Part shown: positions 10,956 through 53,278 of the stretch, piece by piece
How positions within the stretch are numbered: the first letter of the stretch is position 1
How the letters are laid out: every line of letters starts with the position of its first letter
The notes under the pieces: generated by a model
Told to the model about the DNA's origin: nothing
The model's database searches: none
What the model saw: the letters and a program-made list of their open reading frames with translations, nothing else
Program-made: the position numbers and the translations under genes
Virus record (IMG/VR): IMGVR_UViG_2721755710_000007
Span: 11,410 to 75,409 of that record
Reading direction: 5' to 3' (one strand)
From: a virus
Lineage: Duplodnaviria; Heunggongvirae; Uroviricota; Caudoviricetes
DNA: 64,000 nt

Positions 10956-12887
10956 TTATGCGTATTGTTGGATGACGGCCAGAACGTCCGCCACGTTGTG
11001 TTTTGTCTCGATAATCCACCAGTTGCCCGGGAAATCGCTGTTCTTCGCCTTCGCTGGCAGCCAGCGAGCGCCGAATTTTTCCTTGATTGCGTCTTTAGCA
11101 CGGAAAAGAACGCCTTTCATGCCGGACGCCTCCTGAAGCCCAAATACCTCACCAGCGGCGAATTTTGGTGCGTACATCATCTTCAGGTCGGCGGTGGATA
11201 CGCGATAATTCAGACCAAGAGACTGAGCTATGCTGGTGGCATCACCCTGTATTGATGATAACTCTTCTTGTTTCTCGTTTCTGGCGGCAATTTCTTCCTC
11301 CGTGATGTTGCCTAGGGCCAGGTTTATCCGATCAGCGTCGGCCTGTTTCTCTTCATCGGTGCGCCCGGCAAGAACCGTGTTAATTCTCTGCAATATCTCA
11401 ACATGATTCTTGCGCATGCTAAGCAATTCCGGCGTAACCTCGTTAAGGTCCACCAGCCCAAGGATGGCAAGGTCGGAAAACATTGATACCAGGTTGTAGG
11501 TCATGCGATAGCTGAGTTGCCCATAGGCTGATGGCAACTGCACCGCATCCATTTGATAGGCATCCATAAATTTAGAGCCGTCGTTTACGACATCCGCAAT
11601 TGCCGGTGTGATTTTCCCTGTGGTGGCGGCCTCCCTGATTGCTGTTACCCACGATTGAGTCAGCGCGGCGACTGCATGATTCAGATTGGCTTTCCGTTCT
11701 GCTGCAATACGCGCGCTTGCAGCGTCCATTGCCTGCTTGATCTCGTCTTTATTGCTGTAAATGCCAATGGTGCCAAACTGTGCTGTGGTGATCTCATAAT
11801 CTGACGCCCGGAACTCATGGGTACCGAAAATGGCATTGGTGACCTCAAGTTCAGAATCCCCGTTACGAGTAGCCCCCTGGCTTGTTTTCTCCGGCATTCT
11901 GGCGATCGCATCCGCTATTGTCTCCTGAATTGCTTCAGGGGATAGCGTATCTCCGTATGACGCGATTACTTCGCCATAATTGGAGCCAAACAGTTCAGTC
12001 AGGAATACTTCTGCCAAACGGACCTGGCGGTTATTCCCTTCCGACATCATACCAAGCACCCATTTTGCAATTGACGACTTCAGCGCGCCGTCACGGCGAT
12101 CCGGGTAAACCGCATGCTTCAGTGGGTCCGTATAGGTACCAACAAAATCAATGCTATAGCCTGACTCTGTAGTCTGAACGCCGTATGAGTCAGTGATTTT
12201 GATCATGCCGCGCTGCTGGAAACGGTAGAAATCGTCACAGGAAATGATGTCGTTAATCCCGGCGATGGAGACGCCACCACTGATTTTCTGCATAACAGCA
12301 TCTTCATCGGGAGTTACATCCACCTGTTTATCCAGCGTCTTCACATCCCAGTTACCCGATTTGGTGCCTTTGAAGGTAAAGATGATCTCCACGTCTGCGC
12401 GCTGGCTGTCGAAGTCCAGCGACTTAATGCGAACGATATCACCGGCACAATCGTAGTATTGGCCTACACGCCATGAGCGATCGCCGATAACAAGGAACTC
12501 ATTCGCATGGTTAACCAGATCAGGATCAACATCCAGAATGCCTTTATTTATTGCATCCTCCACCAGCGGGCGCAGGCGTTTGATATCCGTCGCGGCCTTC
12601 TGAGTACGGTTCAATAATTTCTCATAGCGGGAGATGGCTTGAGTGATATTAGCCTTGCGCTGAATGGCGCTTTTCAACGACGCGCGATAATGTGCTAACA
12701 ACGTACGGTCTGTGTGATGGACGCTACCCCAGCGGGCCTTCCAGTCTGCATTATCAGCTGCTTTGGCCATTAACTGGAGTGCCATCAGTACCAAGAACAG
12801 GAGCACCTCCCACGCTAATAGACTGGCCCCCTGAATCTCACCGTTCTGAAACCACAACAAAAAAACATCAGGAATAAAAAACACCAC
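10956..12887 (-). CDS. hypothetical large protein (up to 643 aa), first gene of operon; true start probably internal (Met codon at 12785 or 12770)
   Basis: Long ORF; codons 17-23 are encoded by an IS2 IRL remnant so the annotated N-terminus is doubtful; no Walker or methyltransferase motifs seen. Confidence 0.5.
   Translation of the reverse strand: MVFFIPDVFLLWFQNGEIQGASLLAWEVLLFLVLMALQLMAKAADNADWKARWGSVHHTDRTLLAHYRASLKSAIQRKANITQAISRYEKLLNRTQKAATDIKRLRPLVEDAINKGILDVDPDLVNHANEFLVIGDRSWRVGQYYDCAGDIVRIKSLDFDSQRADVEIIFTFKGTKSGNWDVKTLDKQVDVTPDEDAVMQKISGGVSIAGINDIISCDDFYRFQQRGMIKITDSYGVQTTESGYSIDFVGTYTDPLKHAVYPDRRDGALKSSIAKWVLGMMSEGNNRQVRLAEVFLTELFGSNYGEVIASYGDTLSPEAIQETIADAIARMPEKTSQGATRNGDSELEVTNAIFGTHEFRASDYEITTAQFGTIGIYSNKDEIKQAMDAASARIAAERKANLNHAVAALTQSWVTAIREAATTGKITPAIADVVNDGSKFMDAYQMDAVQLPSAYGQLSYRMTYNLVSMFSDLAILGLVDLNEVTPELLSMRKNHVEILQRINTVLAGRTDEEKQADADRINLALGNITEEEIAARNEKQEELSSIQGDATSIAQSLGLNYRVSTADLKMMYAPKFAAGEVFGLQEASGMKGVLFRAKDAIKEKFGARWLPAKAKNSDFPGNWWIIETKHNVADVLAVIQQYA
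12819..12839 (+). mobile_element. 21-bp IS2 left inverted repeat remnant
   Basis: TAGACTGGCCCCCTGAATCTC identical to the IRL of the intact IS2 at 19645; similarity stops after 21 bp. Confidence 0.6.
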
Positions 12888-19554: not shown

Positions 19555-19759
19555 CTGCTCTCCAATGACTAGTCTAAAAACTAGTATTAAGACTATCACT
19601 TATTTAAGTGATATTGGTTGTCTGGAGATTCAGGGGGCCAGTCTAATTTATTATAGAGTATATATATGTACTGCGTTTAAATCATGAAGACGACAACCTG
19701 TTTTACATAAATTATTCCTAAGTATTTTTCCAGAGAAGACCTAGGTATAATGATGTGCA

Positions 19760-20527
19760 GGTAATGACTCCAACTTATTGATAGTGTTTTATGTTCAGAT
19801 AATGCCCGATGACTTTGTCATGCAGCTCCACCGATTTTGAGAACGACAGCGACTTCCGTCCCAGCCGTGCCAGGTGCTGCCTCAGATTCAGGTTATGCCG
19901 CTCAATTCGCTGCGTATATCGCTTGCTGATTACGTGCAGCTTTCCCTTCAGGCGGGATTCATACAGCGGCCAGCCATCCGTCATCCATATCACCACGTCA
20001 AAGGGTGACAGCAGGCTCATAAGACGCCCCAGCGTCGCCATAGTGCGTTCACCGAATACGTGCGCAACAACCGTCTTCCGGAGACTGTCATACGCGTAAA
20101 ACAGCCAGCGCTGGCGCGATTTAGCCCCGACATAGCCCCACTGTTCGTCCATTTCCGCGCAGACGATGACGTCACTGCCCGGCTGTATGCGCGAGGTTAC
20201 CGACTGCGGCCTGAGTTTTTTAAGTGACGTAAAATCGTGTTGAGGCCAACGCCCATAATGCGGGCAGTTGCCCGGCATCCAACGCCATTCATGGCCATAT
20301 CAATGATTTTCTGGTGCGTACCGGGTTGAGAAGCGGTGTAAGTGAACTGCAGTTGCCATGTTTTACGGCAGTGAGAGCAGAGATAGCGCTGATGTCCGGC
20401 GGTGCTTTTGCCGTTACGCACCACCCCGTCAGTAGCTGAACAGGAGGGACAGCTGATAGAAACAGAAGCCACTGGAGCACCTCAAAAACACCATCATACA
20501 CTAAATCAGTAAGTTGGCAGCATCACC
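19760..20527 (-). mobile_element. IS1 copy 2
   Basis: 768 bp identical in ORF content to copy 1 (insB 19775-20278, insA 20197-20472); no 9-bp duplication. Confidence 0.95.
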
Positions 20528-20563
20528 CTTAAGAAGATCGCCCTGAAATTCATCAAATAATCC

Positions 20564-23311: not shown

Positions 23312-23317
23312 ATATGG

Positions 23318-24085
23318 GGTAATGACTCCAACTTATTGATAGTGTTTTATGTTCAGATAATGCCCGATGACTTTGTCATGCAGCTCCACCGATTTTGAGA
23401 ACGACAGCGACTTCCGTCCCAGCCGTGCCAGGTGCTGCCTCAGATTCAGGTTATGCCGCTCAATTCGCTGCGTATATCGCTTGCTGATTACGTGCAGCTT
23501 TCCCTTCAGGCGGGATTCATACAGCGGCCAGCCATCCGTCATCCATATCACCACGTCAAAGGGTGACAGCAGGCTCATAAGACGCCCCAGCGTCGCCATA
23601 GTGCGTTCACCGAATACGTGCGCAACAACCGTCTTCCGGAGACTGTCATACGCGTAAAACAGCCAGCGCTGGCGCGATTTAGCCCCGACATAGCCCCACT
23701 GTTCGTCCATTTCCGCGCAGACGATGACGTCACTGCCCGGCTGTATGCGCGAGGTTACCGACTGCGGCCTGAGTTTTTTAAGTGACGTAAAATCGTGTTG
23801 AGGCCAACGCCCATAATGCGGGCAGTTGCCCGGCATCCAACGCCATTCATGGCCATATCAATGATTTTCTGGTGCGTACCGGGTTGAGAAGCGGTGTAAG
23901 TGAACTGCAGTTGCCATGTTTTACGGCAGTGAGAGCAGAGATAGCGCTGATGTCCGGCGGTGCTTTTGCCGTTACGCACCACCCCGTCAGTAGCTGAACA
24001 GGAGGGACAGCTGATAGAAACAGAAGCCACTGGAGCACCTCAAAAACACCATCATACACTAAATCAGTAAGTTGGCAGCATCACC
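23318..24085 (-). mobile_element. IS1 copy 3
   Basis: 768 bp; insB 23333-23836, insA 23755-24030; same orientation as copy 2; no duplication. Confidence 0.95.
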
Positions 24086-25559
24086 TATCAATGGCCTGGG
24101 CAATACTTTCCGTCGAAAATGATTGCAACATATTGCCGATATCCTCAAATCCAAGTGATTTGAGAGCCTCACCAATGGCGCTGCTAATACCAGATACCAG
24201 TCCCCCCATATCAAGAACATTAGCTAACGTATAAGCGGCTTTTTGCTGGAATGATGGATCTTGTCCTGATTTAAGCCCAAACGCTCGACGTTGCGCTTCT
24301 GTATCATTCCAACCGGTTACCGCATCATAAATACCTCCAGCCACTGTGCCGACTAGGGGAATTGCGCGTAACGCCCCTTTACCAACTGCCTTTAATCCAA
24401 GTTTACCTGCTGCCCGGGCAGCCAAATCTCCGCCTTCATGGGCGAGAGTCTTCTTGCCACCACCGCGTAGCATTCCTACAAGTTTCTTTGCCCCCAGAGC
24501 GCCAAAAGCGAGTGCTCCAGCTTTTTTCAGCATGCCACGCCCCATTAACAACGACGCGACGCCACCGGCCCCCTTCCCTAACAGGCTAAATAGTTTGGAC
24601 AGCAAGCCGCCCTTCTTTTTCCCGGTGTTTTTGGCTATCTGATCAAGGGCACGGAGAATCTTGTCATTGCCCTCTTTAATTTCGCTGGTCTGCTCCTGAA
24701 GTTCCTGAACCGTCCGTTTTTGGGTGTTAACCTGAACGACATCGGCACTATTTTGCGATTTACGCCTAAAAAAACCTTTTCTACGGCTGTTATCGTCGTT
24801 GCCACGAATCACATCGGCAATAGACTTTCTGGCACCATTAAGCGATCCACCAACTTCTTTTGATATCCCGCCAAGCTCCTTCCCTGCTGCCCACAATGGA
24901 CCAGCAACGGCATAACCTAACGCATCGACGGCACGAGTCTCTGAAGGGTTACCTATGCCTTCAGCTACTTTTGACAGTTTTTTTAATAAACCTGATTCAG
25001 CATTTAGACGCTCATCATCCTCTTTGCGCCTGGCCTTTTCAGCACGTTCAGCACGGGCATCTTCCGCTGCGGCCTTACTCCCTGACTTTCCAATAAAACG
25101 ACCACGCGCATCGCGTTGGTTTTGGCTTTTTTGCGCACCGCCTTTTTGACCGAACATTTCGCGAGCGTGTTCGGCTGCTTCGGTCCGTTGCGCCTTTACA
25201 TCTTCTGTTATAGCCTTCTTGCGTCGTTTTTTACCCTTTCGCGTAGTTGATTTGGCCTGCGGTTCCTGTAGAGCAACATCCTCCTGAACTACACGAGAAA
25301 CGTCCCCTAAATTAAGCCGTTTCATTGCCTCAACAATAGGGTCCACTGATGGCGCATTGGCCACAAAGTCTGGCCGGGAATTTTCGATTGTGCGATTTAA
25401 TGCCGACACACTGCGAGAGACAGGATCAACTGTAGCAACTCGCCCACCTTTCAAATCTTCAACGGCTTCCCGAATACCTGCAAGCTCTTCCAGCTCTTTT
25501 GCGCTGGCGGTTTCAACCGTCCTTATCACATCGTCAATGTTGGCGTTTTTTCTTTCCAT
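24081..25559 (-). CDS. Gly/Ala/Lys-rich phage structural-like protein; 3' end abuts IS1 and may be truncated
   Basis: 492-aa ORF whose stop codon lies inside the IS1 terminus. Confidence 0.45.
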   Translation of the reverse strand: MERKNANIDDVIRTVETASAKELEELAGIREAVEDLKGGRVATVDPVSRSVSALNRTIENSRPDFVANAPSVDPIVEAMKRLNLGDVSRVVQEDVALQEPQAKSTTRKGKKRRKKAITEDVKAQRTEAAEHAREMFGQKGGAQKSQNQRDARGRFIGKSGSKAAAEDARAERAEKARRKEDDERLNAESGLLKKLSKVAEGIGNPSETRAVDALGYAVAGPLWAAGKELGGISKEVGGSLNGARKSIADVIRGNDDNSRRKGFFRRKSQNSADVVQVNTQKRTVQELQEQTSEIKEGNDKILRALDQIAKNTGKKKGGLLSKLFSLLGKGAGGVASLLMGRGMLKKAGALAFGALGAKKLVGMLRGGGKKTLAHEGGDLAARAAGKLGLKAVGKGALRAIPLVGTVAGGIYDAVTGWNDTEAQRRAFGLKSGQDPSFQQKAAYTLANVLDMGGLVSGISSAIGEALKSLGFEDIGNMLQSFSTESIAQAIDR

Positions 25560-40437: not shown

Positions 40438-41403
40438 TTATTCCCCAGCAGACATTTTCCCAATGATTTTTTTTATTGCTTCGTCAATTTCAGTTTGCAC
40501 TTCAGACGGGAGTCTGGAGAACTCGTAGGCGACAACCCGTTTTTTCGGATCGGACTTCTTTCGGGCATATTGGCGACGGTCAGAGAAGTCTCGCAGCTTC
40601 TCAACCACCACAGATTTAACCGGCGCGGGCTTCAGGCTTTTGCTTTCCGCTTTGAAGATAGCCAGTATCTTCGCTTTATCCTCTTTCGCGCCCTCAGTCT
40701 CTGCAATTCGTTCGCGCACCGTATCAACCAGCTCTTCAATCGGCACGCTTTTAGCGTTAGCATCCTCGGCGATCTGGAGCAGTAACTGGTAATCTGGAAG
40801 GGCGAGCTCGCTGGCTACGGGGAAGACAGCAATCATCTCATCCGGCACCGCGGCAGCCTGGAAAGCTCGCGTCACTTTAGCCTTTGAGATGTTCTCAGCT
40901 CGGGCGATCTCTTCTTTGGTCATATTCTTACCGTACATAACCTCGAAGCGTTTACCCAGCTCGCGCAGAGTGTGTTCGCGGGCTGTCTGGATATCAATGG
41001 CCAGCTGGCGGGCATCCGCCAGGCTGATCTCATCTTTCGTCACCAGAATCTCAAATTTCGTTTCATTGAAGATACACGCAGCACGGCGACGCGATCCGTC
41101 CAATACCTCAATGCGCTCCCCAACCATACGACCGATAGCCGGGAAGAACTGTTGCAATTTAATGGTGCGGGAAATATCGCTTACCGACTCAGGGGTGAGC
41201 AGAGACTGATCGCGGCCGTTAACTGCCGGGTCAACGAACGTGCGCGACTCAATCTCACCACTCAGCACGACGGTAAGCAAGAATTTAGCCTGGCGGCCAG
41301 ATTTTAGGGTAAAGGTTTTGGTGCCTTCACTGCCTTCAAGCATGCGAGCAAACTCGGAGCTATTCTTGCCCAGCACTCGTCCACGGGAAACTATTTTTTT
41401 CAT
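40438..41403 (-). CDS. parB: ParB partition protein
   Basis: 321 aa; ILDGSRRR and HTH region; diverged from recalled P1 ParB. Confidence 0.8.
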   Translation of the reverse strand: MKKIVSRGRVLGKNSSEFARMLEGSEGTKTFTLKSGRQAKFLLTVVLSGEIESRTFVDPAVNGRDQSLLTPESVSDISRTIKLQQFFPAIGRMVGERIEVLDGSRRRAACIFNETKFEILVTKDEISLADARQLAIDIQTAREHTLRELGKRFEVMYGKNMTKEEIARAENISKAKVTRAFQAAAVPDEMIAVFPVASELALPDYQLLLQIAEDANAKSVPIEELVDTVRERIAETEGAKEDKAKILAIFKAESKSLKPAPVKSVVVEKLRDFSDRRQYARKKSDPKKRVVAYEFSRLPSEVQTEIDEAIKKIIGKMSAGE

Positions 41404-42611
41404 GCCGCCTCACCCCTAACAAACTCAATTCGATCAAACACAGCCTTAGTGAAACGCTCGGCCTCGGTTCGTGCCTTCTTCAGCGCCTCTGCACTGCCTG
41501 GATACGATTGCGGGTTGGCACTGATTACGGTGTCGAAAGACTCGCCGCATCGCTCAAATCCATCCAGACGAGGCAGAGAAGAGTCCAGAATGTTGCTGGC
41601 GTAAACCTCACGCGCAAGGCTGTGTGATGTCTCGTGATCGCGCTTGCCGGTCATCTTCGACATAAAACCAATGCTGGCGCTTAAACGCGGTTCTACGCCT
41701 TCCTCCTCCAGTTGCTCCAGCATTTCTGGCAGACGGGTGAGATATTTCAGTGTTGAGTGGAAGTCAACCTGGGCTGGTGGGGTAGGGGTAAGCAGCAAAT
41801 CGCTGGCCGCCAGACCGTTGAGCAGGAACGGATCCAGGTGTGGACCGGTATCAATAAAGATAAAGTCATAATCATCCGCAACACGATCAATGATATTGCG
41901 TCGAAGGATTTCGTACTGATTTTGTCCGGGAAGATGCTCTTCAACCAGCTCTTTCCATTGGCTGGCAACAAAGCCATCGTCGATAGAGGCTGGAATCACG
42001 TCTACGCCAGGAACGATGGTCGGACGAATCACCTCTTTGCGTAGCGTCTCCGCGTCCAGGTCGTTCAGCATCGCCTGCGCGGCGGTTTCCAGGATGGAAC
42101 CAATACTGTGAGTATGGTCGAGGAACATTGTGCTGGATGCCTGAGGGTCAAGGTCAATTACCAGAATGCGCAGATCGTGACGCAGTAAATCCTGATGCAC
42201 ACGCAGAGCGTGCGCCAACGTGACTGTGGAAACCGTTTTGGATACGCCACCCTTCAGGTTTACGACAAAAATAACGTAAGGCGATTTGTGAATGTCGCGA
42301 TATTTTGGGATCTTACGGTGGGCATAGATATCAATGACGTTCTGGATGGTCAGCGCGTACTGTTCAACGTTACCGACCTGTTTCTTGTTGAACTGGTACC
42401 CATCATCTTCCATCTCTTTGATGGCCTGCTCCACAATGCGGCGGCTCAGCTTCGGCAACTTTGCCACAGCGTTACGAGTGAACGTCTGATAATACTCGGT
42501 CTGATTGAACTCTTTGCGCTGATCTTCAATATCCTGGCTCATGGCCTTAAGTAATGCGCTTGCACGAAGAGCTATGGTGCCGACACCGCCGTAATCGCGT
42601 TTCATCATCAT
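41400..42611 (-). CDS. parA: ParA partition ATPase
   Basis: 403 aa; deviant Walker A NLKGGVSKT. Confidence 0.85.
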   Translation of the reverse strand: MMMKRDYGGVGTIALRASALLKAMSQDIEDQRKEFNQTEYYQTFTRNAVAKLPKLSRRIVEQAIKEMEDDGYQFNKKQVGNVEQYALTIQNVIDIYAHRKIPKYRDIHKSPYVIFVVNLKGGVSKTVSTVTLAHALRVHQDLLRHDLRILVIDLDPQASSTMFLDHTHSIGSILETAAQAMLNDLDAETLRKEVIRPTIVPGVDVIPASIDDGFVASQWKELVEEHLPGQNQYEILRRNIIDRVADDYDFIFIDTGPHLDPFLLNGLAASDLLLTPTPPAQVDFHSTLKYLTRLPEMLEQLEEEGVEPRLSASIGFMSKMTGKRDHETSHSLAREVYASNILDSSLPRLDGFERCGESFDTVISANPQSYPGSAEALKKARTEAERFTKAVFDRIEFVRGEAA

Positions 42612-42715
42612 CTCCTTATCATTTCGTATGAGTGAATTGTACGTTTGATTCTGCTACGTGCAACTTTTTTTGATTCGTGCGTCAATTATTGCACGTAAAG
42701 AAATGGCGATGAGGC

Positions 42716-43010
42716 TATTAGATGTGTGCTGGAGGGATGATGCAGGACCAGAATGTGCGAGAGAGGGAAGTCGCATTGAATTATGTGCTGTGGAGGGATC
42801 GCTGGTATCAAATATGTGTGCTGGAGGGAAAGGCAGAGAATTACATGTGCACTGGAGGGAAAAACGGATGGACAGATGTGTGCTGGAGGGAAAGTCTGGG
42901 CAAACTGCGGGGCGTCCCCCTCCAGCGCACATCAAAAACAGGAAATTGGACAAGCCTTCCCGGCAGCACACATTTTTTTAATGCAGCTTCCCTCCAGCAC
43001 ACACTTATTC
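42716..43010. repeat. incA iteron array
   Basis: About nine copies of GATGTGTGCTGGAGGGAAA-like 19-mers in both orientations. Confidence 0.8.
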
Positions 43011-43865
43011 TGGGAGTTTCAGCTTTGGATTGCGAGAATGGACGATTACAAAACTTTCCCGGCCTTTCTTCTCAATTGAACAGTCGAGATAGCCGATTGT
43101 TTTAAGCTGTTCTATCGCTTTCTTAATGATACGGTTTTGCTCGCCAACAGCTGACTGCAAAGCCAGGCGCTCACGGATTCGGGCGAAAGATAGCGGCAAC
43201 GGATTCTGCGGAAGGCTTTCGATGAAAGTGTAAATGGCTTGTGCAGCTTCTTTCTTCGGAAGGGCACGCAAGGCGTGGTGTTGCAACAGAACGCGATAAT
43301 CAAGCTGGAACAGCTCCCACAGCTTCGAATCAGCCTCCAGCTCTATCAGATCAAGGTCAGCATCAAAACGACCGACCTTTAGCAGACCAGTCTGATAGCC
43401 GCCTTTAGCATCTTTTCCGCGCTTAAAAGCGATACCCTTGTTACGTAAGCGTCCAAGTGATTCATGAATGGTTAAACGCAGTTTCGCATCCAGACGTTTT
43501 GAGGGGAAACCACAGGCTTTAGCGAATTCCTGAAACGATAACTGGATGGTGTTTGAGGACAAGCCGTATTTGCTGAACGCGTAGATGACACCGATCCACG
43601 TTTTGAAATCAGTATCCATATCGAGTCGAGGACCGGTGATTTTAATATCATCGTAACCCTCGGCTTTAGCTATCTCCAGCTGGGAAAACGCTTTGGTGGC
43701 ATCAATCTCTTTACTTTCTCCTTTGCTCTTTGATGGCTTCGGCACGAATACCCCCAAGCGCATCAACGCTACAGGCTGCACAGTGTTGTTTGAATTAACT
43801 GTTAGTTCTTTTGCCTTACTTTCAATGTCTGCGTAAAGAATATCGGAGATAAATGATTGATTCAT
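43005..43865 (-). CDS. repA: RepA plasmid replication initiator
   Basis: 286 aa starting MNQSFISDILYADIES, matching recalled P1 RepA; flanked by iteron arrays. Confidence 0.9.
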   Translation of the reverse strand: MNQSFISDILYADIESKAKELTVNSNNTVQPVALMRLGVFVPKPSKSKGESKEIDATKAFSQLEIAKAEGYDDIKITGPRLDMDTDFKTWIGVIYAFSKYGLSSNTIQLSFQEFAKACGFPSKRLDAKLRLTIHESLGRLRNKGIAFKRGKDAKGGYQTGLLKVGRFDADLDLIELEADSKLWELFQLDYRVLLQHHALRALPKKEAAQAIYTFIESLPQNPLPLSFARIRERLALQSAVGEQNRIIKKAIEQLKTIGYLDCSIEKKGRESFVIVHSRNPKLKLPE

Positions 43866-46378: not shown

Positions 46379-46395
46379 ATTGCTCTAATAAATAT
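46379..46395 (+). promoter_or_regulatory. C1 operator
   Basis: ATTGCTCTAATAAATAT, 16/17. Confidence 0.55.
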
Positions 46396-46466
46396 TGTTT
46401 TTTATGTCGTATTTTCGGTACCATTCAGCCATCGCCCTTCAATGGGCATTTGTTTGGAGTCGTCAG

Positions 46467-46751: not shown

Positions 46752-47649
46752 GCACTGGAAAAACATTACTATTTATAAACTTTCTCGTGAGGCGGATCTG
46801 ACCGACTTAGAAGATAAAAAGAAAATGATCCTTTTCACGCCATGCGGTAGTCAGGATATGGCCAAGTTCGGTTTTGTATCTCCATTTGGTGATAATTCCG
46901 AAGTTATCGCTATGCATGGAAATGGTTTTATCCTTGTTGAAGCAAAGCGCGAAACAAAAATTCTTCCCCCGCCGGTTATCCAGCGAGCTATTCAAGAAAA
47001 AATTGAAAAACTTGAGCAAGAACAAGCGTGTAAACTGAAGAAAACAGAGAAGGACTCCCTGAAAGACGAAGTTCTGCATTCTCTTCTGCCACGGGCTTTT
47101 TCAAAGTTTTCTGTTATCCAGGCGATCTACGACGGTTCAACTAAACGTATCTATATCAATGCCAGCGCGCGGCAGGCAGAGGATATGCTCGCGCTTATGC
47201 GTAAGTCTCTGGGTTCTCTTCCTGTTGTTCCCCTGAGTGTTGAAAATCCCATTGAATTAACGCTGACCGACTGGGTACGTGATGGTAGTGCTCCACAGGG
47301 ATTTCAAATGGGGGATGCGGCAGAACTTAAGGCAGTGCTTGAGGATGGCGGTATTGCCCGAGTGAAAAAGCAGGATTTGGGAAGCGATGAAATTTCCACA
47401 CACCTGGAAGCTGGCAAGCTCGTCACTAAGTTGGCACTCGACTGGCAGAACCGCATTAAATTTACACTGGACCATAACTTCAGCCTTACCAGCGTCAAAT
47501 TTGCGGATGAATTGCTTGAGCAGAACTCTGATATTGATAGTGAAGATGTAGCGCAGCGACTGGACGCAGATTTCTTCCTGTTGACCAGTGAAATTTCGTG
47601 CCTGGTTGATGCTCTGGTAAATGCCCTTGGTGGAGAGGCTAAGCAGTGA
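46744..47649 (+). CDS. hrdC: RdgC-like recombination-associated protein
   Basis: [19 protein letters not shown]...[11 protein letters not shown]...[23 protein letters not shown] closely resembles recalled E. coli RdgC. Confidence 0.8.
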
Positions 47650-50600
47650 AAGAGCTGTGCTATGGATCTGTTTGCAGTGGAATTGAAGCCGCGAGTATTG
47701 CCTGGGAACCGTTGGGTATGCGTCCGGTTTGGTTTGCTGAAATCGAGCCTTTTCCATCGGCCGTTCTTGCGCTCCGCTGGCCCCATGTCGCCAACCTTGG
47801 CGACATGACAAAACTTGCCAAAAAAGTCTAGGCTGGGGAAATCGAATCCCCTGACGTGCTCGTCGGGGGAACACCATGTTTTACCGCGGGGCATATGGTT
47901 CTTTGTAAAAATGGTTATAAACCAATAGAAGATATTTGCCCTGGCGATTACGTAGTCAGTCATCTCGGGCGGTTACAACAAGTAAAAAGAGTTGGTTCAA
48001 AAATAGCTAATACGGGGTTACTTAATGCCGTTGGGCAGCCTTTAGGTATAAGAACAACCAATGACCATCCCTTCCTGGCGGTTCGGTGGAAAGCCCAAAA
48101 CACCCGGAAAAATGGCACATATTTTAAGAGAGAGTTGTTGTCTGAACCGGAATGGCGAGCAGCATGTGATATGCCGGGATATCAATGGTGCGCTCTAACT
48201 AATTTCAATATTGCATCTCCAGATATTTGTTCTCGGTTCTTGTCTGAAGAACAGGCTATGTATCTTGCGGGCGCTTATGTTGGCGATGGATATATTAGGA
48301 GATGGAGAGGTAAATCTAAGAAGGCGGTTGTTTTTGGCATAAATTGCCAGAAATTGAGAAAGTTTCATTGCCGCATACCAGAAAACATATTTTCCGTGGC
48401 AAGCGAAATCCGAGGGAGCATCAAAGTAACCTTGAATGATACGTGTTATGCCAATTGGCTTAATGAACATTTTGGCGAGTTAAGCCATGCTAAGCGTATC
48501 CCTGCATGGGTGATGTCGCATCCATTGCGTCATGTGTTTTTACAAGGCTATCTTGATACTGATGGGACACCAAGTGGTAAAGCGGGATTTAGAATTAATA
48601 GTGTTAGTCCTGCGCTTGCTTGGGGCGTTGCGGGGTTGTCACAGACTTGTGGTTATGTTTCTTCGGTCAGCTTTATTGAAGTTGAGCCCAAAAAAGTGAT
48701 CGAGGATCGCGTGGTAAATCAACGGAATTATTATCAGGTAACAATCTGCCCGCAGAAATTGTCACGTAAATCAAGATTGGCTCATGGAATGCTTTTACGA
48801 ACAGTCAAAGAGTTTAAATCGGTAGGCCTAGATACTGTATACAACATAGAAGTCGAAGGTGATCATTCCTATATCCTCAATGGTGCGGTGGTCCATAACT
48901 GTCAGGCATTCAGTATCGCGGGATTACGTGGTGGGCTTGATGATGAGCGTGGCGCGCTAACTTTAAAGTATGTGGAGCTTGCAAATGCAATTGACGACAA
49001 ACGGGCTGAGTCATTTCTCAAACCAGCCGTTATCGTCTGGGAAAATGTCCCAGGAGTCTTGTCATCGGCAGATAACGCCTTCGGATGTTTCCTTGCCGGA
49101 TTGGCTGGAGAAGATGCGCCATTTGAACCAGGTGATCGACCTGAATCAGGAAAAAGTAACGCGTTCTGGCGGTGGGATGGCAAAACCGGTTGCCATGCTC
49201 CAAAGTGGCCGCAGTGTGGTTGTATTTATGGGCCGCAGCGAAAGGTGGCCTGGAGAATCCTTGATGCCCAATACTTCGGAGTGGCACAACGACGCCGACG
49301 CGTGTTTGTTGTCGCAAGTGCTCGAACAGACCTCGATCCCGCAACGGTACTTTTTGAGTTCGAAGGCGTGCGCCGGAATATTGCGCCGAGCCGAAAAAAG
49401 AAGGAAATCGCTTCCGCCATTACTGCAAATGGCGCTGCAATCAGTGGCGAAAGCCTAAATCCATGCCTACACGCTGGCATGTCCCCCGGTATGAAATCGA
49501 CGAAAGCCGTAAACGGTTTCAGGATGGCGGCATTTGGGGAATATATTGACGATGAAACCGCATCGACAGTAAAGGCAAGAGACTTTAAAGATGCCACTGA
49601 CCTTGCTGTTTTTAGCAGCACAGGAGCAGGTTTTTGGTCAGAAGGGCATGGTACATTGCGGGCTCGTGAGCAAGAAAGCCATGAGCATCTTGTTACATTG
49701 GCTTTTCCTGAGCGTATGAGCGGTACACAACATGCTGCAACTAAGAATACTTCACCATCTCTAATGGCTAAAAATCCAACAGCTGTTTGCTATGAAGTAA
49801 GAAACGCAGAAGTAGCTGTCCGCCGTCTTACCCCTGTCGAATGTGAAAGGCTGCAAGGTTTTCCTGATGGGCATACGTTGATCCCGACGGAAAAGCGTAA
49901 AAAAGTTAATTCAGATGAACTGGCATATCTTCGCAATCACTATCCAGATTTAAGCGAAGAAGAGGCCGCGATGCTTGCAGCTGACGGACCGCGTTACAAA
50001 GCGATCGGCAATAGTATGGCAATACCAGTAATGCGCTGGATTGGCGATCGGATTACTAAGGCCGTATGTCGGCAGAAAGAAGGAAGTGAAACAAAAGAGC
50101 GAAAAGTTAAACCAGCGGCAGAATTCGAACGGTCCATATTCAAATGGGCTGGTGGAAAATTTGGTGTTCTGGAACAAATCTTTCGCTATTTGCCAGAAGG
50201 GAAGCGCCTGATTGAACCTTTCGTCGGTGGTGGAGCTGTCTTCATGAATGCCGGATACCAGGAAAATCTGCTAAATGATGTGAATGCTGACCTGATTAAC
50301 TTTTACAAGACTCTGCAACGCGAGGCGCATTCACTTATCACTCTGGCTCATCGTTTCTTCTTGGACTACAACACCCAGGAGGGATTCCTGGCAGTACGGA
50401 ATGCGTTTAACAAACAAGTCTATGATGATTTACATCGCGCAGCGGCGTTTTTGTTCCTGAACCGACATTGTTTTAACGGATTGACGCGTTACAACCAGGC
50501 CGGTGAGTTCAATGTCGGTTATGGGAAGTATAAAACTCCGTATTTCCCATTACAGGAGATGGAAGCCTTCCTCGGTGCGGAAGGTCGTTCTGAGTTTGTA

Positions 50601-50933
50601 TGTGGTGATTTTGCTGCGGTGATTGAAGCTGCCGGAGAAGGAGATGTCATTTTTTGCGATCCGCCATATGAACCGCTTCCAAATACAGAGGGATTCACGA
50701 ACTATTCCGGTCATGACTTTAAGTTTGAAGAGCAACAACGCCTGGTGTCTCTGTTGACGGATGCTCATCGCCGAGGTGCAAAGGTTCTCATTACTAACAG
50801 TGGCGCGCCAAACATCAGAGAGCTTTATCATGACAATGGTTTCAGAGTGGAACCTCTTTTTGCCAGACGTTCTGTGTCTTGTAAGGGGGACACTCGAGGT
50901 GTTGCTCATGACGTTTTAGGTATATTGCTCTAA
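47646..50933 (+). CDS. dmt: Dmt-like bifunctional DNA methyltransferase (N-terminal C5-cytosine MTase, C-terminal Dam-like N6-adenine MTase), interrupted by an in-frame TAG at 47829-47831 and by an intein
   Basis: C5-MTase motifs I (CSGIEAAS), IV (GGTP-CQAFS), ENV, QRRR, GNS; Dam motifs KWAGGK, DPPY; exteins total about 753 codons. Confidence 0.75.
47877..48899 (+). mobile_element. intein with LAGLIDADG homing-endonuclease domain (341 codons) within dmt
   Basis: Starts with Cys after GGTP, ends HN followed by Cys; TTNDH block B; [11 protein letters not shown] and [11 protein letters not shown] blocks. Confidence 0.8.
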
Positions 50934-51608: not shown

Positions 51609-51684
51609 GATGGTGTAGCTCAGCGGTTAGAGCGGTTGACTGTTAATCAACGGGTCGATGGTTCAAATCCATCCACCATCGCCA
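51609..51684 (+). tRNA. tRNA-Asn (anticodon GTT)
   Basis: 76 nt; acceptor GATGGTG/CACCATC, anticodon loop CTGTTAA, T-loop TTCAAAT, encoded CCA. Confidence 0.85.
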
Positions 51685-51686
51685 AT

Positions 51687-51762
51687 GCCGGTTTAGCTCA
51701 GTTGGTAGAGCGCCTGCTTTGTAAGCAGGATGTCAGCGGTTCGAGTCCGTTAATCGGCACCA
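51687..51762 (+). tRNA. tRNA-Thr (anticodon TGT)
   Basis: 76 nt; anticodon loop TTTGTAA, T-loop TTCGAGT, encoded CCA; 2 nt after tRNA-Asn. Confidence 0.85.
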
Positions 51763-53202: not shown

Positions 53203-53278
53203 GGCCCTTTAGCTCAGTGGTTAGAGCTGGCGACTCATAATCGCACGGTCACCGGTTCAAGTCCGGTAGGGGCCACCA
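53203..53278 (+). tRNA. tRNA with CAT anticodon (Met, or Ile2 if lysidine-modified; P1 trnI position)
   Basis: 76 nt; acceptor GGCCCTT/AGGGGCC, anticodon loop CTCATAA, T-loop TTCAAGT, encoded CCA. Confidence 0.8.

Follow-up and report, generated by a model that had tools for sequence, protein, structure and literature searches.

The dmt gene of a defective, P1-derived IncY plasmid is interrupted by an in-frame amber codon. We conclude that this amber is genuine and vertically inherited, and that it very probably represents a recent, tolerated pseudogenisation of dmt in which the Dmt methyltransferase and the intein embedded in it were silenced together. The gene lies in a stretch of 64,000 nucleotides (nt), here called the window, which corresponds to positions 11,410 to 75,409 of the IMG/VR record IMGVR_UViG_2721755710_000007; the region concerned is the uhr-hrdC-dmt operon of a P1-like IncY plasmid. 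A previous reading of the window, made from the sequence only, had noted the TAG at 47829-47831 between motif I and motif IV of dmt and had proposed that it reflects a recently inactivated gene, a sequencing error, or a requirement for suppression or readthrough. The codon and its position are confirmed by the sequence and by the list of open reading frames (ORFs). Of the three proposals, inactivation agrees best with the comparisons described here: we read the stop as a step of ordinary gene decay, with no special role in decoding.

The TAG codon and the split dmt reading frame

The 61-amino-acid (aa) ORF at 47646-47831, which ends in MTKLAKKV, and the 1025-aa ORF at 47856-50933 are in the same frame on the + strand and are separated solely by the TAG (gtc TAG gct at 47826-47834; AAA AAA GTC TAG GCT GGG GAA at 47820-47840). 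Translation of 47646-50933 yields 1095 sense codons and one internal stop, at codon 62. With the exception of that codon, the translation is identical to WP_097428273.1, the intact 1095-aa protein of plasmid NZ_LR883966.1. The stop therefore interrupts a frame that is continuous in homologues, as in a nonsense pseudogene, and an open frame of 1025 codons that continues a homologous frame of 61 codons is far from anything that chance would give. The parts of the gene are as follows.

47646..47828, + strand: N-terminal dmt fragment of 61 aa with C5-methyltransferase motifs I-III (PF00145 profile positions 5-56)
47829..47831, + strand: amber codon, dmt codon 62, with the derived base A at 47830; the ancestral codon is TTG (Leu)
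47832..47876, + strand: last 15 codons of the N-extein, including the in-frame GTG 47856 (from sequence and folding)
47877..48899, + strand: predicted intein of 341 aa with two LAGLIDADG motifs (Hint_2, LAGLIDADG_3 and intein_Cterm matches, Pfam/NCBIfam)
47895..47897, + strand: in-frame ATG six codons past the intein Cys1, the PGAP start of the 1012-aa 'Dam family' protein WP_073511587.1
48900..50933, + strand: C-extein, with C5-methyltransferase motifs IV-X, a variable middle segment and the Dam domain (PF00145, PF02086, TIGR00571)

The start codon of dmt, GTG 47646, overlaps the stop codon of hrdC (GTGA) and has a GGAG-type Shine-Dalgarno (SD) sequence about 9 nt upstream. Motif I (CSGIE) is found at residues 10-14 of the N-terminal fragment, followed by an acidic AEIEP motif at residues 31-35 and LGDM at residues 51-54. 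The Pro and Cys of motif IV are at residues 77 and 419, with the intein between them. The TAG is located 15 codons 5' of the intein Cys1 (47877) and hence upstream of the entire intein. Like other members of the P1 Dmt family, the gene combines PF00145 and PF02086 in one reading frame within a uhr-hrdC-dmt operon, but the TAG at codon 62 means that it is not the single uninterrupted ORF of that family. In sibling plasmids PGAP annotates the N-terminal piece as a pseudo 'DNA cytosine methyltransferase, missing C-terminus'.

Occurrence of the amber allele in independent records

We searched for the allele with an exact 59-mer in complete Escherichia coli genomes and in PLSDB, and also in JGI metagenomes and a collection of 15 billion proteins. 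The allele is rare, with exact 59-mer matches in 2 of 436 complete E. coli genome records and 1 of 419 PLSDB records; the PLSDB carrier is p22Q34-2. The same TAG is present in NZ_JBVWFT010000002.1 (human, Canada), NZ_JCAPUC010000003.1 (frog-farm sediment, China) and NZ_ON934557.1 (no country given), and on one JGI metagenome contig. The exact 61-aa product was found on 58 contigs (107 index blocks), and for the exact downstream protein 32 + 28 contigs are on record. Proteins of the TAG allele have been deposited as APK23025.1/APK23026.1, WP_073511587.1 and WP_170930426.1. The intact, otherwise identical dmt allele occurs on 38 contigs, compared to approximately 58-60 for the TAG allele. Because the TAG allele is not rarer than its intact sister, the amber appears to carry no visible cost.

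A sequencing or assembly error, with T as the true base at 47830 and the gene intact, might be suspected from the single base that separates the allele from an almost identical intact one. This explanation, one of those offered by the sequence-only reading, is scarcely credible. The same TAG recurs in three other annotated plasmids, in one metagenome contig and on 58 contigs overall, in independent records that span countries, hosts and pipelines and that include RefSeq plasmids, GenBank, an ENA metagenome, Logan SRA assemblies and a JGI-collection contig. One carrier has 3 further single-nucleotide polymorphisms (SNPs), and the site lies outside a homopolymer, the T-to-A substitution following AAAAAAGTC. 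Error was rejected on the grounds that the identical TAG was sequenced and assembled independently.

Derived state and recent origin

The closest plasmid to the window, NZ_LR883966.1, shows 27 differences from it over 59.5 kb of shared backbone. At 47830 NZ_LR883966.1 has T where the window has A, and this is the sole difference among the 27 that creates a stop. Codon 62 is TTG, one step from TAG, in NZ_LR883966.1, RCS47 and OP279344, and CTG in reference P1. The sequence-only reading had suggested comparison with the dmt alleles of related elements, and this comparison was made here. In a codon-62 census of 75 P1-like dmt alleles from IMG/VR (loci L012-L090), made by frame-based translation, all 75 have a sense codon, which encodes Leu in 66 (CTG 48, TTG 16, CTT 2) and Gln in 9 (CAG); none has a stop at this position, and the dmt ORF is intact in about 72 of these relatives. 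Judged from these alleles, the amber is a derived T-to-A change at 47830 (Leu62 TTG to TAG).

Over 8-13 kb, carriers of the TAG allele show 0-3 SNPs relative to the window. Since the carriers are near-clonal, the nearest relative has TTG and the other relatives have sense codons, the data indicate one recent origin of the TAG allele followed by its spread. The proposal of a recently inactivated gene is well supported by this pattern.

The Leu/Gln polymorphism at codon 62 has a side aspect. Gln is the residue inserted by supE-type or near-cognate decoding of UAG, so that any readthrough product would resemble a natural variant of the protein.

Translation beyond the stop

For every in-frame start up to +470 nt we calculated the anti-SD duplex and its spacing, and no well-placed restart was found among them. 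The GTG at 47856, 24 nt past the stop, is preceded only by a GGGG 15 nt upstream and lies inside a stable hairpin; the minimum free energy of its 81-nt context is -27.5 kcal/mol. This hairpin, at 47847-47868 (CCCCUGACG-UGCU-CGUCGGGGG), encloses the GTG and is encoded by all alleles within the conserved sequence ESPDVLVGG. The ATG at 47895 has an SD-like GGGG only 2-3 nt upstream and is probably an annotation start rather than a proven start. Of the two deposited downstream proteins, WP_170930426.1 starts at GTG 47856 and WP_073511587.1 (window 47895-50933) starts inside the intein. Both are probably tails of the broken dmt, and annotation artefacts rather than real proteins.

No sigma-70-like promoter was detected on the + strand between 46000 and 51600, in a scan limited to weak consensus matching. 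ARAGORN predicted no tRNA with a CUA anticodon in the window, only tRNA-Asn(GTT), tRNA-Thr(TGT) and tRNA-Met(CAT). A sibling plasmid has the same three tRNAs, with the CAT one annotated as Ile. These P1-type tRNA genes (Asn-GTT, Thr-TGT and CAT-anticodon) are located at 51609-51762 and 53203-53278. We take the CAT-anticodon tRNA, called Met by ARAGORN and Ile by PGAP, to be P1 trnI, presumably lysidine-modified.

Because no promoter is seen and the restart sites are poor, we infer that full-length Dmt is not made. The sequence-only reading had asked whether Dmt is made at all while the intein endonuclease persists. This separation of the two does not hold up, as the intein is in the same frame 3' of the TAG, with no promoter-like site on the + strand and poor restarts; the endonuclease would thus be silenced with Dmt and is probably not made either. 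The intein would then persist only by vertical inheritance with the plasmid.

The intein and the downstream domains

Intein boundaries were set by comparison with the inteinless 754-aa Dmt of P1. The intein splits motif IV directly before the catalytic Cys (P|CQ; GGTP|C...HN|CQAFS), and the long ORF therefore begins with 7 N-extein residues, followed by the intein. It has the features of a class 1 intein, namely Cys1 in CFTAGH, a TTNDH block B (48054-48068), VVHN followed by Cys+1, two LAGLIDADG motifs (LAGAYVGDG at 48264-48290 and LQGYLDTDG at 48540-48566), and a TIGR01443 match. Splicing and homing are predicted only, and, being encoded downstream of the stop, the intein would go untranslated unless restart or readthrough occurred. 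Among 497 matching PLSDB plasmids 126 carry the intein, which also occurs in phage RCS47 and even in a laboratory isolate of P1 (OP279344.1); it is not present in reference P1. We found nothing specific in the open-access literature on the dmt intein or on tested C5 activity of Dmt.

The Dam domain is of the D12 class of N6-adenine methyltransferases (PF02086, E = 2.8e-56; TIGR00571 dam), with DPPY at 50658-50669, and the dmt stop codon ends at 50933. The alleles of loci L012-L090 fall into length classes of 754, 1095, 1013, 862, 807, 672, 759 and 715 aa, which reflect both whether the intein is present and a variable middle segment that separates the C5 domain from the Dam domain. In the window this segment (49395-49820) is 426 nt, compared to 180 nt in OP279344.

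The element is a defective P1-derived plasmid

46379..46424, + strand: C1 operator Odmt (ATTGCTCTAATAAATAT) and promoter Pdmt of uhr-hrdC-dmt, located by alignment to the annotated AF234172.1
12773..24067: accessory DNA replacing a P1 block from inside darB to inside sit (BLAST of P1 genes; PGAP pseudogene flags)
NZ_JBVWFT010000002.1 59712-60974 (L094 9712-10974), outside the window: pmgS homologue with R296*

The operator and promoter upstream of the operon are conserved with P1, and repA, parA and parB are present at 40438-43865. In contrast to this retained plasmid core, essential head, tail and lysis genes are missing, as expected for a non-phage plasmid derived from P1. Approximately 24 kb of P1, comprising portal, head protease, lysis, Dar, cin and tail-fibre genes, have been replaced by 11.3 kb of accessory DNA. 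This loss of virion and lysis genes did not figure in the sequence-only reading. Remnants of darB (10956-12772, 27% retained) and sit (24068-25559, 41-44%) flank the replacement, and IS1 copies at about 19759-20528 and 23315-24086 bound it. BLAST searches of the window with all P1 genes detected no prt (portal), pro, lyz, ssb, darA operon, lydA/B/C, cin, tail-fibre S/U/R, gp16, bplA or pmgA. The same genes are absent from the complete siblings NZ_JBVWFT010000002.1, which has the TAG, and NZ_LR883966.1, which has TTG, and darB and sit are reduced there to the same extent. Since the deletion is common to TAG and TTG plasmids, it predates the amber. The siblings carry instead insertion sequence (IS) elements, MobI/MobH fragments, an autotransporter and resistance islands. 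NZ_JBVWFT010000002.1 is identical to the window over about 40 kb and differs in its accessory region. Judged from its gene content, the element would be unable to form virions or to complete a lytic cycle.

A second nonsense mutation is found in the TAG plasmid p02B17002_B, in which pmgS has CGA changed to TGA (R296*); pmgS is intact in NZ_LR883966.1. This fits an ongoing decay of leftover lytic genes. In addition, the specificity subunit of a type I restriction-modification system, hsdS, is 208 aa in the TAG plasmid (NZ_JBVWFT010000002.1 55004-55630) and 411 aa in the TTG sister (NZ_LR883966.1 77022-78257), both outside the window. The hsdS gene of the TAG plasmid may be truncated or recombined.

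Why the loss of dmt appears to be tolerated

In phage P1, dmt was non-essential in a genome-wide CRISPRi screen (PMC10695390). It is a lytic gene repressed by C1 (PMC4713147) and is required only in Dam- hosts, for methylation of pac (PMC12707154). P1-like phage-plasmids have been described to turn into plasmids by gene loss and by gain of mobilization functions and resistance genes (Pfeifer and Rocha, PMC10879196).

These observations suggest the following course of events. The plasmid would first have lost the P1 portal, head-protease, lysis, tail-fibre and baseplate genes. The TTG to TAG change at Leu62 would then have arisen once, and recently, in one plasmid sublineage. Ribosomes starting at GTG 47646 would terminate at codon 62 and release a 61-aa fragment with motifs I-III only. 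The 1025 codons downstream appear to lack a promoter of their own and offer poor restart sites, so that full-length Dmt, the intein endonuclease and probably Dam activity would be absent or present only in traces. Any pac-site methylation needed for packaging could be supplied by the host Dam. Being silent in the plasmid state and without a task in this element, dmt could be inactivated at little cost and the null allele could spread with the plasmid; because the gene is C1-repressed and no packaging is left to serve, we infer that the mutation is near neutral and that the protein product is absent.

Several observations weigh against this account of a tolerated loss. The TAG allele occurs no less often than its intact sister and may confer a small advantage. 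Reinitiation at GTG 47856 or basal readthrough of UAG could provide some product. No carrier examined has a further disabling change in the 1025 downstream codons; p22Q34-2 has one synonymous change and one A779T there. Such intactness fits the recency of the stop but may also be compatible with continued selection on the Dam part, and a selection comparison of the downstream ORF within the TAG clade involves two substitutions only and has no statistical power. Finally, the accessory part of the window is byte-identical to no complete record retrieved, and because it is unmatched, the absence of virion genes outside the 64 kb rests on the sibling plasmids.

The significance of the amber is small beyond annotation. 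The RefSeq entries WP_073511587.1 and WP_170930426.1, named 'Dam family methyltransferase', represent the tail of a broken gene; one of them is annotated with a start inside an intein and should therefore not be counted as a functional methyltransferase. The allele also provides a small, clean example of point-mutational decay in a leftover lytic gene after the passage from a P1 phage-plasmid to a resistance plasmid. If the downstream part were expressed, the allele would amount to a natural experiment on intein function with an N-extein of 7 residues.

Alternative explanations

The amber might remove only the C5-methyltransferase function, through loss of motif I, if translation restarted at GTG 47856 or ATG 47895 to give the intein and a Dam-active C-terminal protein. 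From the GTG, splicing would yield MLVGGTP-CQAFS..., and from the ATG, which lies inside the intein past Cys1, only C-terminal cleavage could free the C-extein. In that case the amber would have produced a hypomorph or altered the function, and it might have been favoured since C5 methylation is costly. The GTG is indeed only 24 nt past the stop, and translation of dmt from its native start is likewise coupled, by the GTGA overlap, to termination of hrdC. The downstream ORF is intact in all carriers and is annotated as a protein by PGAP, and the allele is no less frequent than its intact sister. Natural dmt alleles all keep the Dam domain, whereas their N-terminal and middle parts vary. However, both restart codons have poor SD geometry, with the GTG buried in its hairpin, and an intact ORF is equally expected of so recent an allele, with 0-3 SNPs per 8-13 kb. 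P1 Dam is known to serve packaging, which has no place in an element that lacks portal, head and tail genes; the operon is C1-repressed, and the split is not conserved in any other lineage. We therefore consider a restart of this kind unlikely. A specific form of it, in which reinitiation at GTG 47856 produces the 7-residue N-extein and a splicing or cleaving intein, and thereby a Dam-active, C5-dead enzyme, would mean that the amber had been selected for altering the enzyme's function, with adenine methylation separated from cytosine methylation and the endonuclease still expressed; this seems quite unlikely.

Full-length Dmt could also be produced by programmed or host-dependent decoding, that is, by amber suppression or stimulated readthrough of UAG with insertion of, for instance, Gln. 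Near-cognate or supE-type decoding of UAG does insert Gln, codon 62 seems tolerant in that 9 of 75 relatives have Gln (CAG), and there is a hairpin 3' of the stop. That hairpin, however, is also encoded by every sense allele and is probably not stop-specific. The stop itself is not conserved (0/75, 2/436 and 1/419), the window encodes no CUA-anticodon tRNA, and the allele is present in many unrelated hosts. Amber suppressors are rare in natural E. coli, and neither a G that follows the UAG nor a Lys codon at position -2 is known to make a stop leaky. A requirement for suppression or readthrough, as the sequence-only reading had considered, is thus very improbable; both the conservation of the stop and a cognate suppressor tRNA were looked for, and neither was found. 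It is likewise highly unlikely that selection favoured the amber because host or plasmid suffered from expression of Dmt or of the homing endonuclease of the intein, whether through m5C-dependent restriction by McrBC-type systems or through endonuclease toxicity. The somewhat higher frequency of the TAG allele compared to the intact sister on the same backbone (about 58-60 versus 38 contigs) would agree with such a benefit, but clonal spread and sampling confound this difference, which is small. Moreover, more than 400 related plasmids keep an intact gene, with or without the intein, and C1 repression in the plasmid state leaves little exposure to selection.

Comparison with known systems

C5-methyltransferases that are naturally split, such as the two-polypeptide M.AquI, have their motifs distributed over two ORFs, as does the window. 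Here, however, the split follows motif III and stems from a single recent nonsense mutation; it is unconserved, being limited to one near-clonal lineage, and the second ORF lacks a good ribosome-binding site, with only poor restart sites available. The window dmt does not, therefore, belong with the natural split enzymes.

A close counterpart is Dmt of P1 (AAQ14041.1), a bifunctional C5-cytosine and Dam N6-adenine methyltransferase. The two share the uhr-hrdC-dmt operon behind Odmt/Pdmt, the start overlapping hrdC and the PF00145 plus PF02086 architecture, and the exteins of the window are identical to P1 Dmt at 738 of 755 positions. Unlike P1 dmt, the window gene is interrupted at codon 62 by an amber and at motif IV by an intein of 341 aa, and it sits on an element that is apparently no longer able to package DNA. 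The intact intein-containing allele of NZ_LR883966.1 (WP_097428273.1) is a 1095-codon gene identical to that of the window, intein included, but with TTG at codon 62. The dmt of phage RCS47 (CDN90818.1) is 98.6% identical, again including the intein, and has Leu (TTG) at codon 62; each of these two alleles is annotated as a single protein. The deposited TAG copies in NZ_JBVWFT010000002.1, NZ_JCAPUC010000003.1 and NZ_ON934557.1 have the same TAG and 0-3 SNPs over 8.5-9 kb, and differ in their accessory regions. The TAG allele is thus already in public records, and nothing about it departs from ordinary pseudogenisation.

At the level of the whole element, the closest parallel is with P1-derived ex-phage plasmids (PMC10879196). 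These have kept the same replication and partition genes and many P1 genes and have lost lysis, head and tail functions, and their gains are the same, namely IS elements, a MOBH/MobI-type mobilization module (seen here in the sibling records) and resistance islands. Nothing essential differs between them and the element described here; what the window adds is a step of point-mutational decay in a remaining lytic gene.

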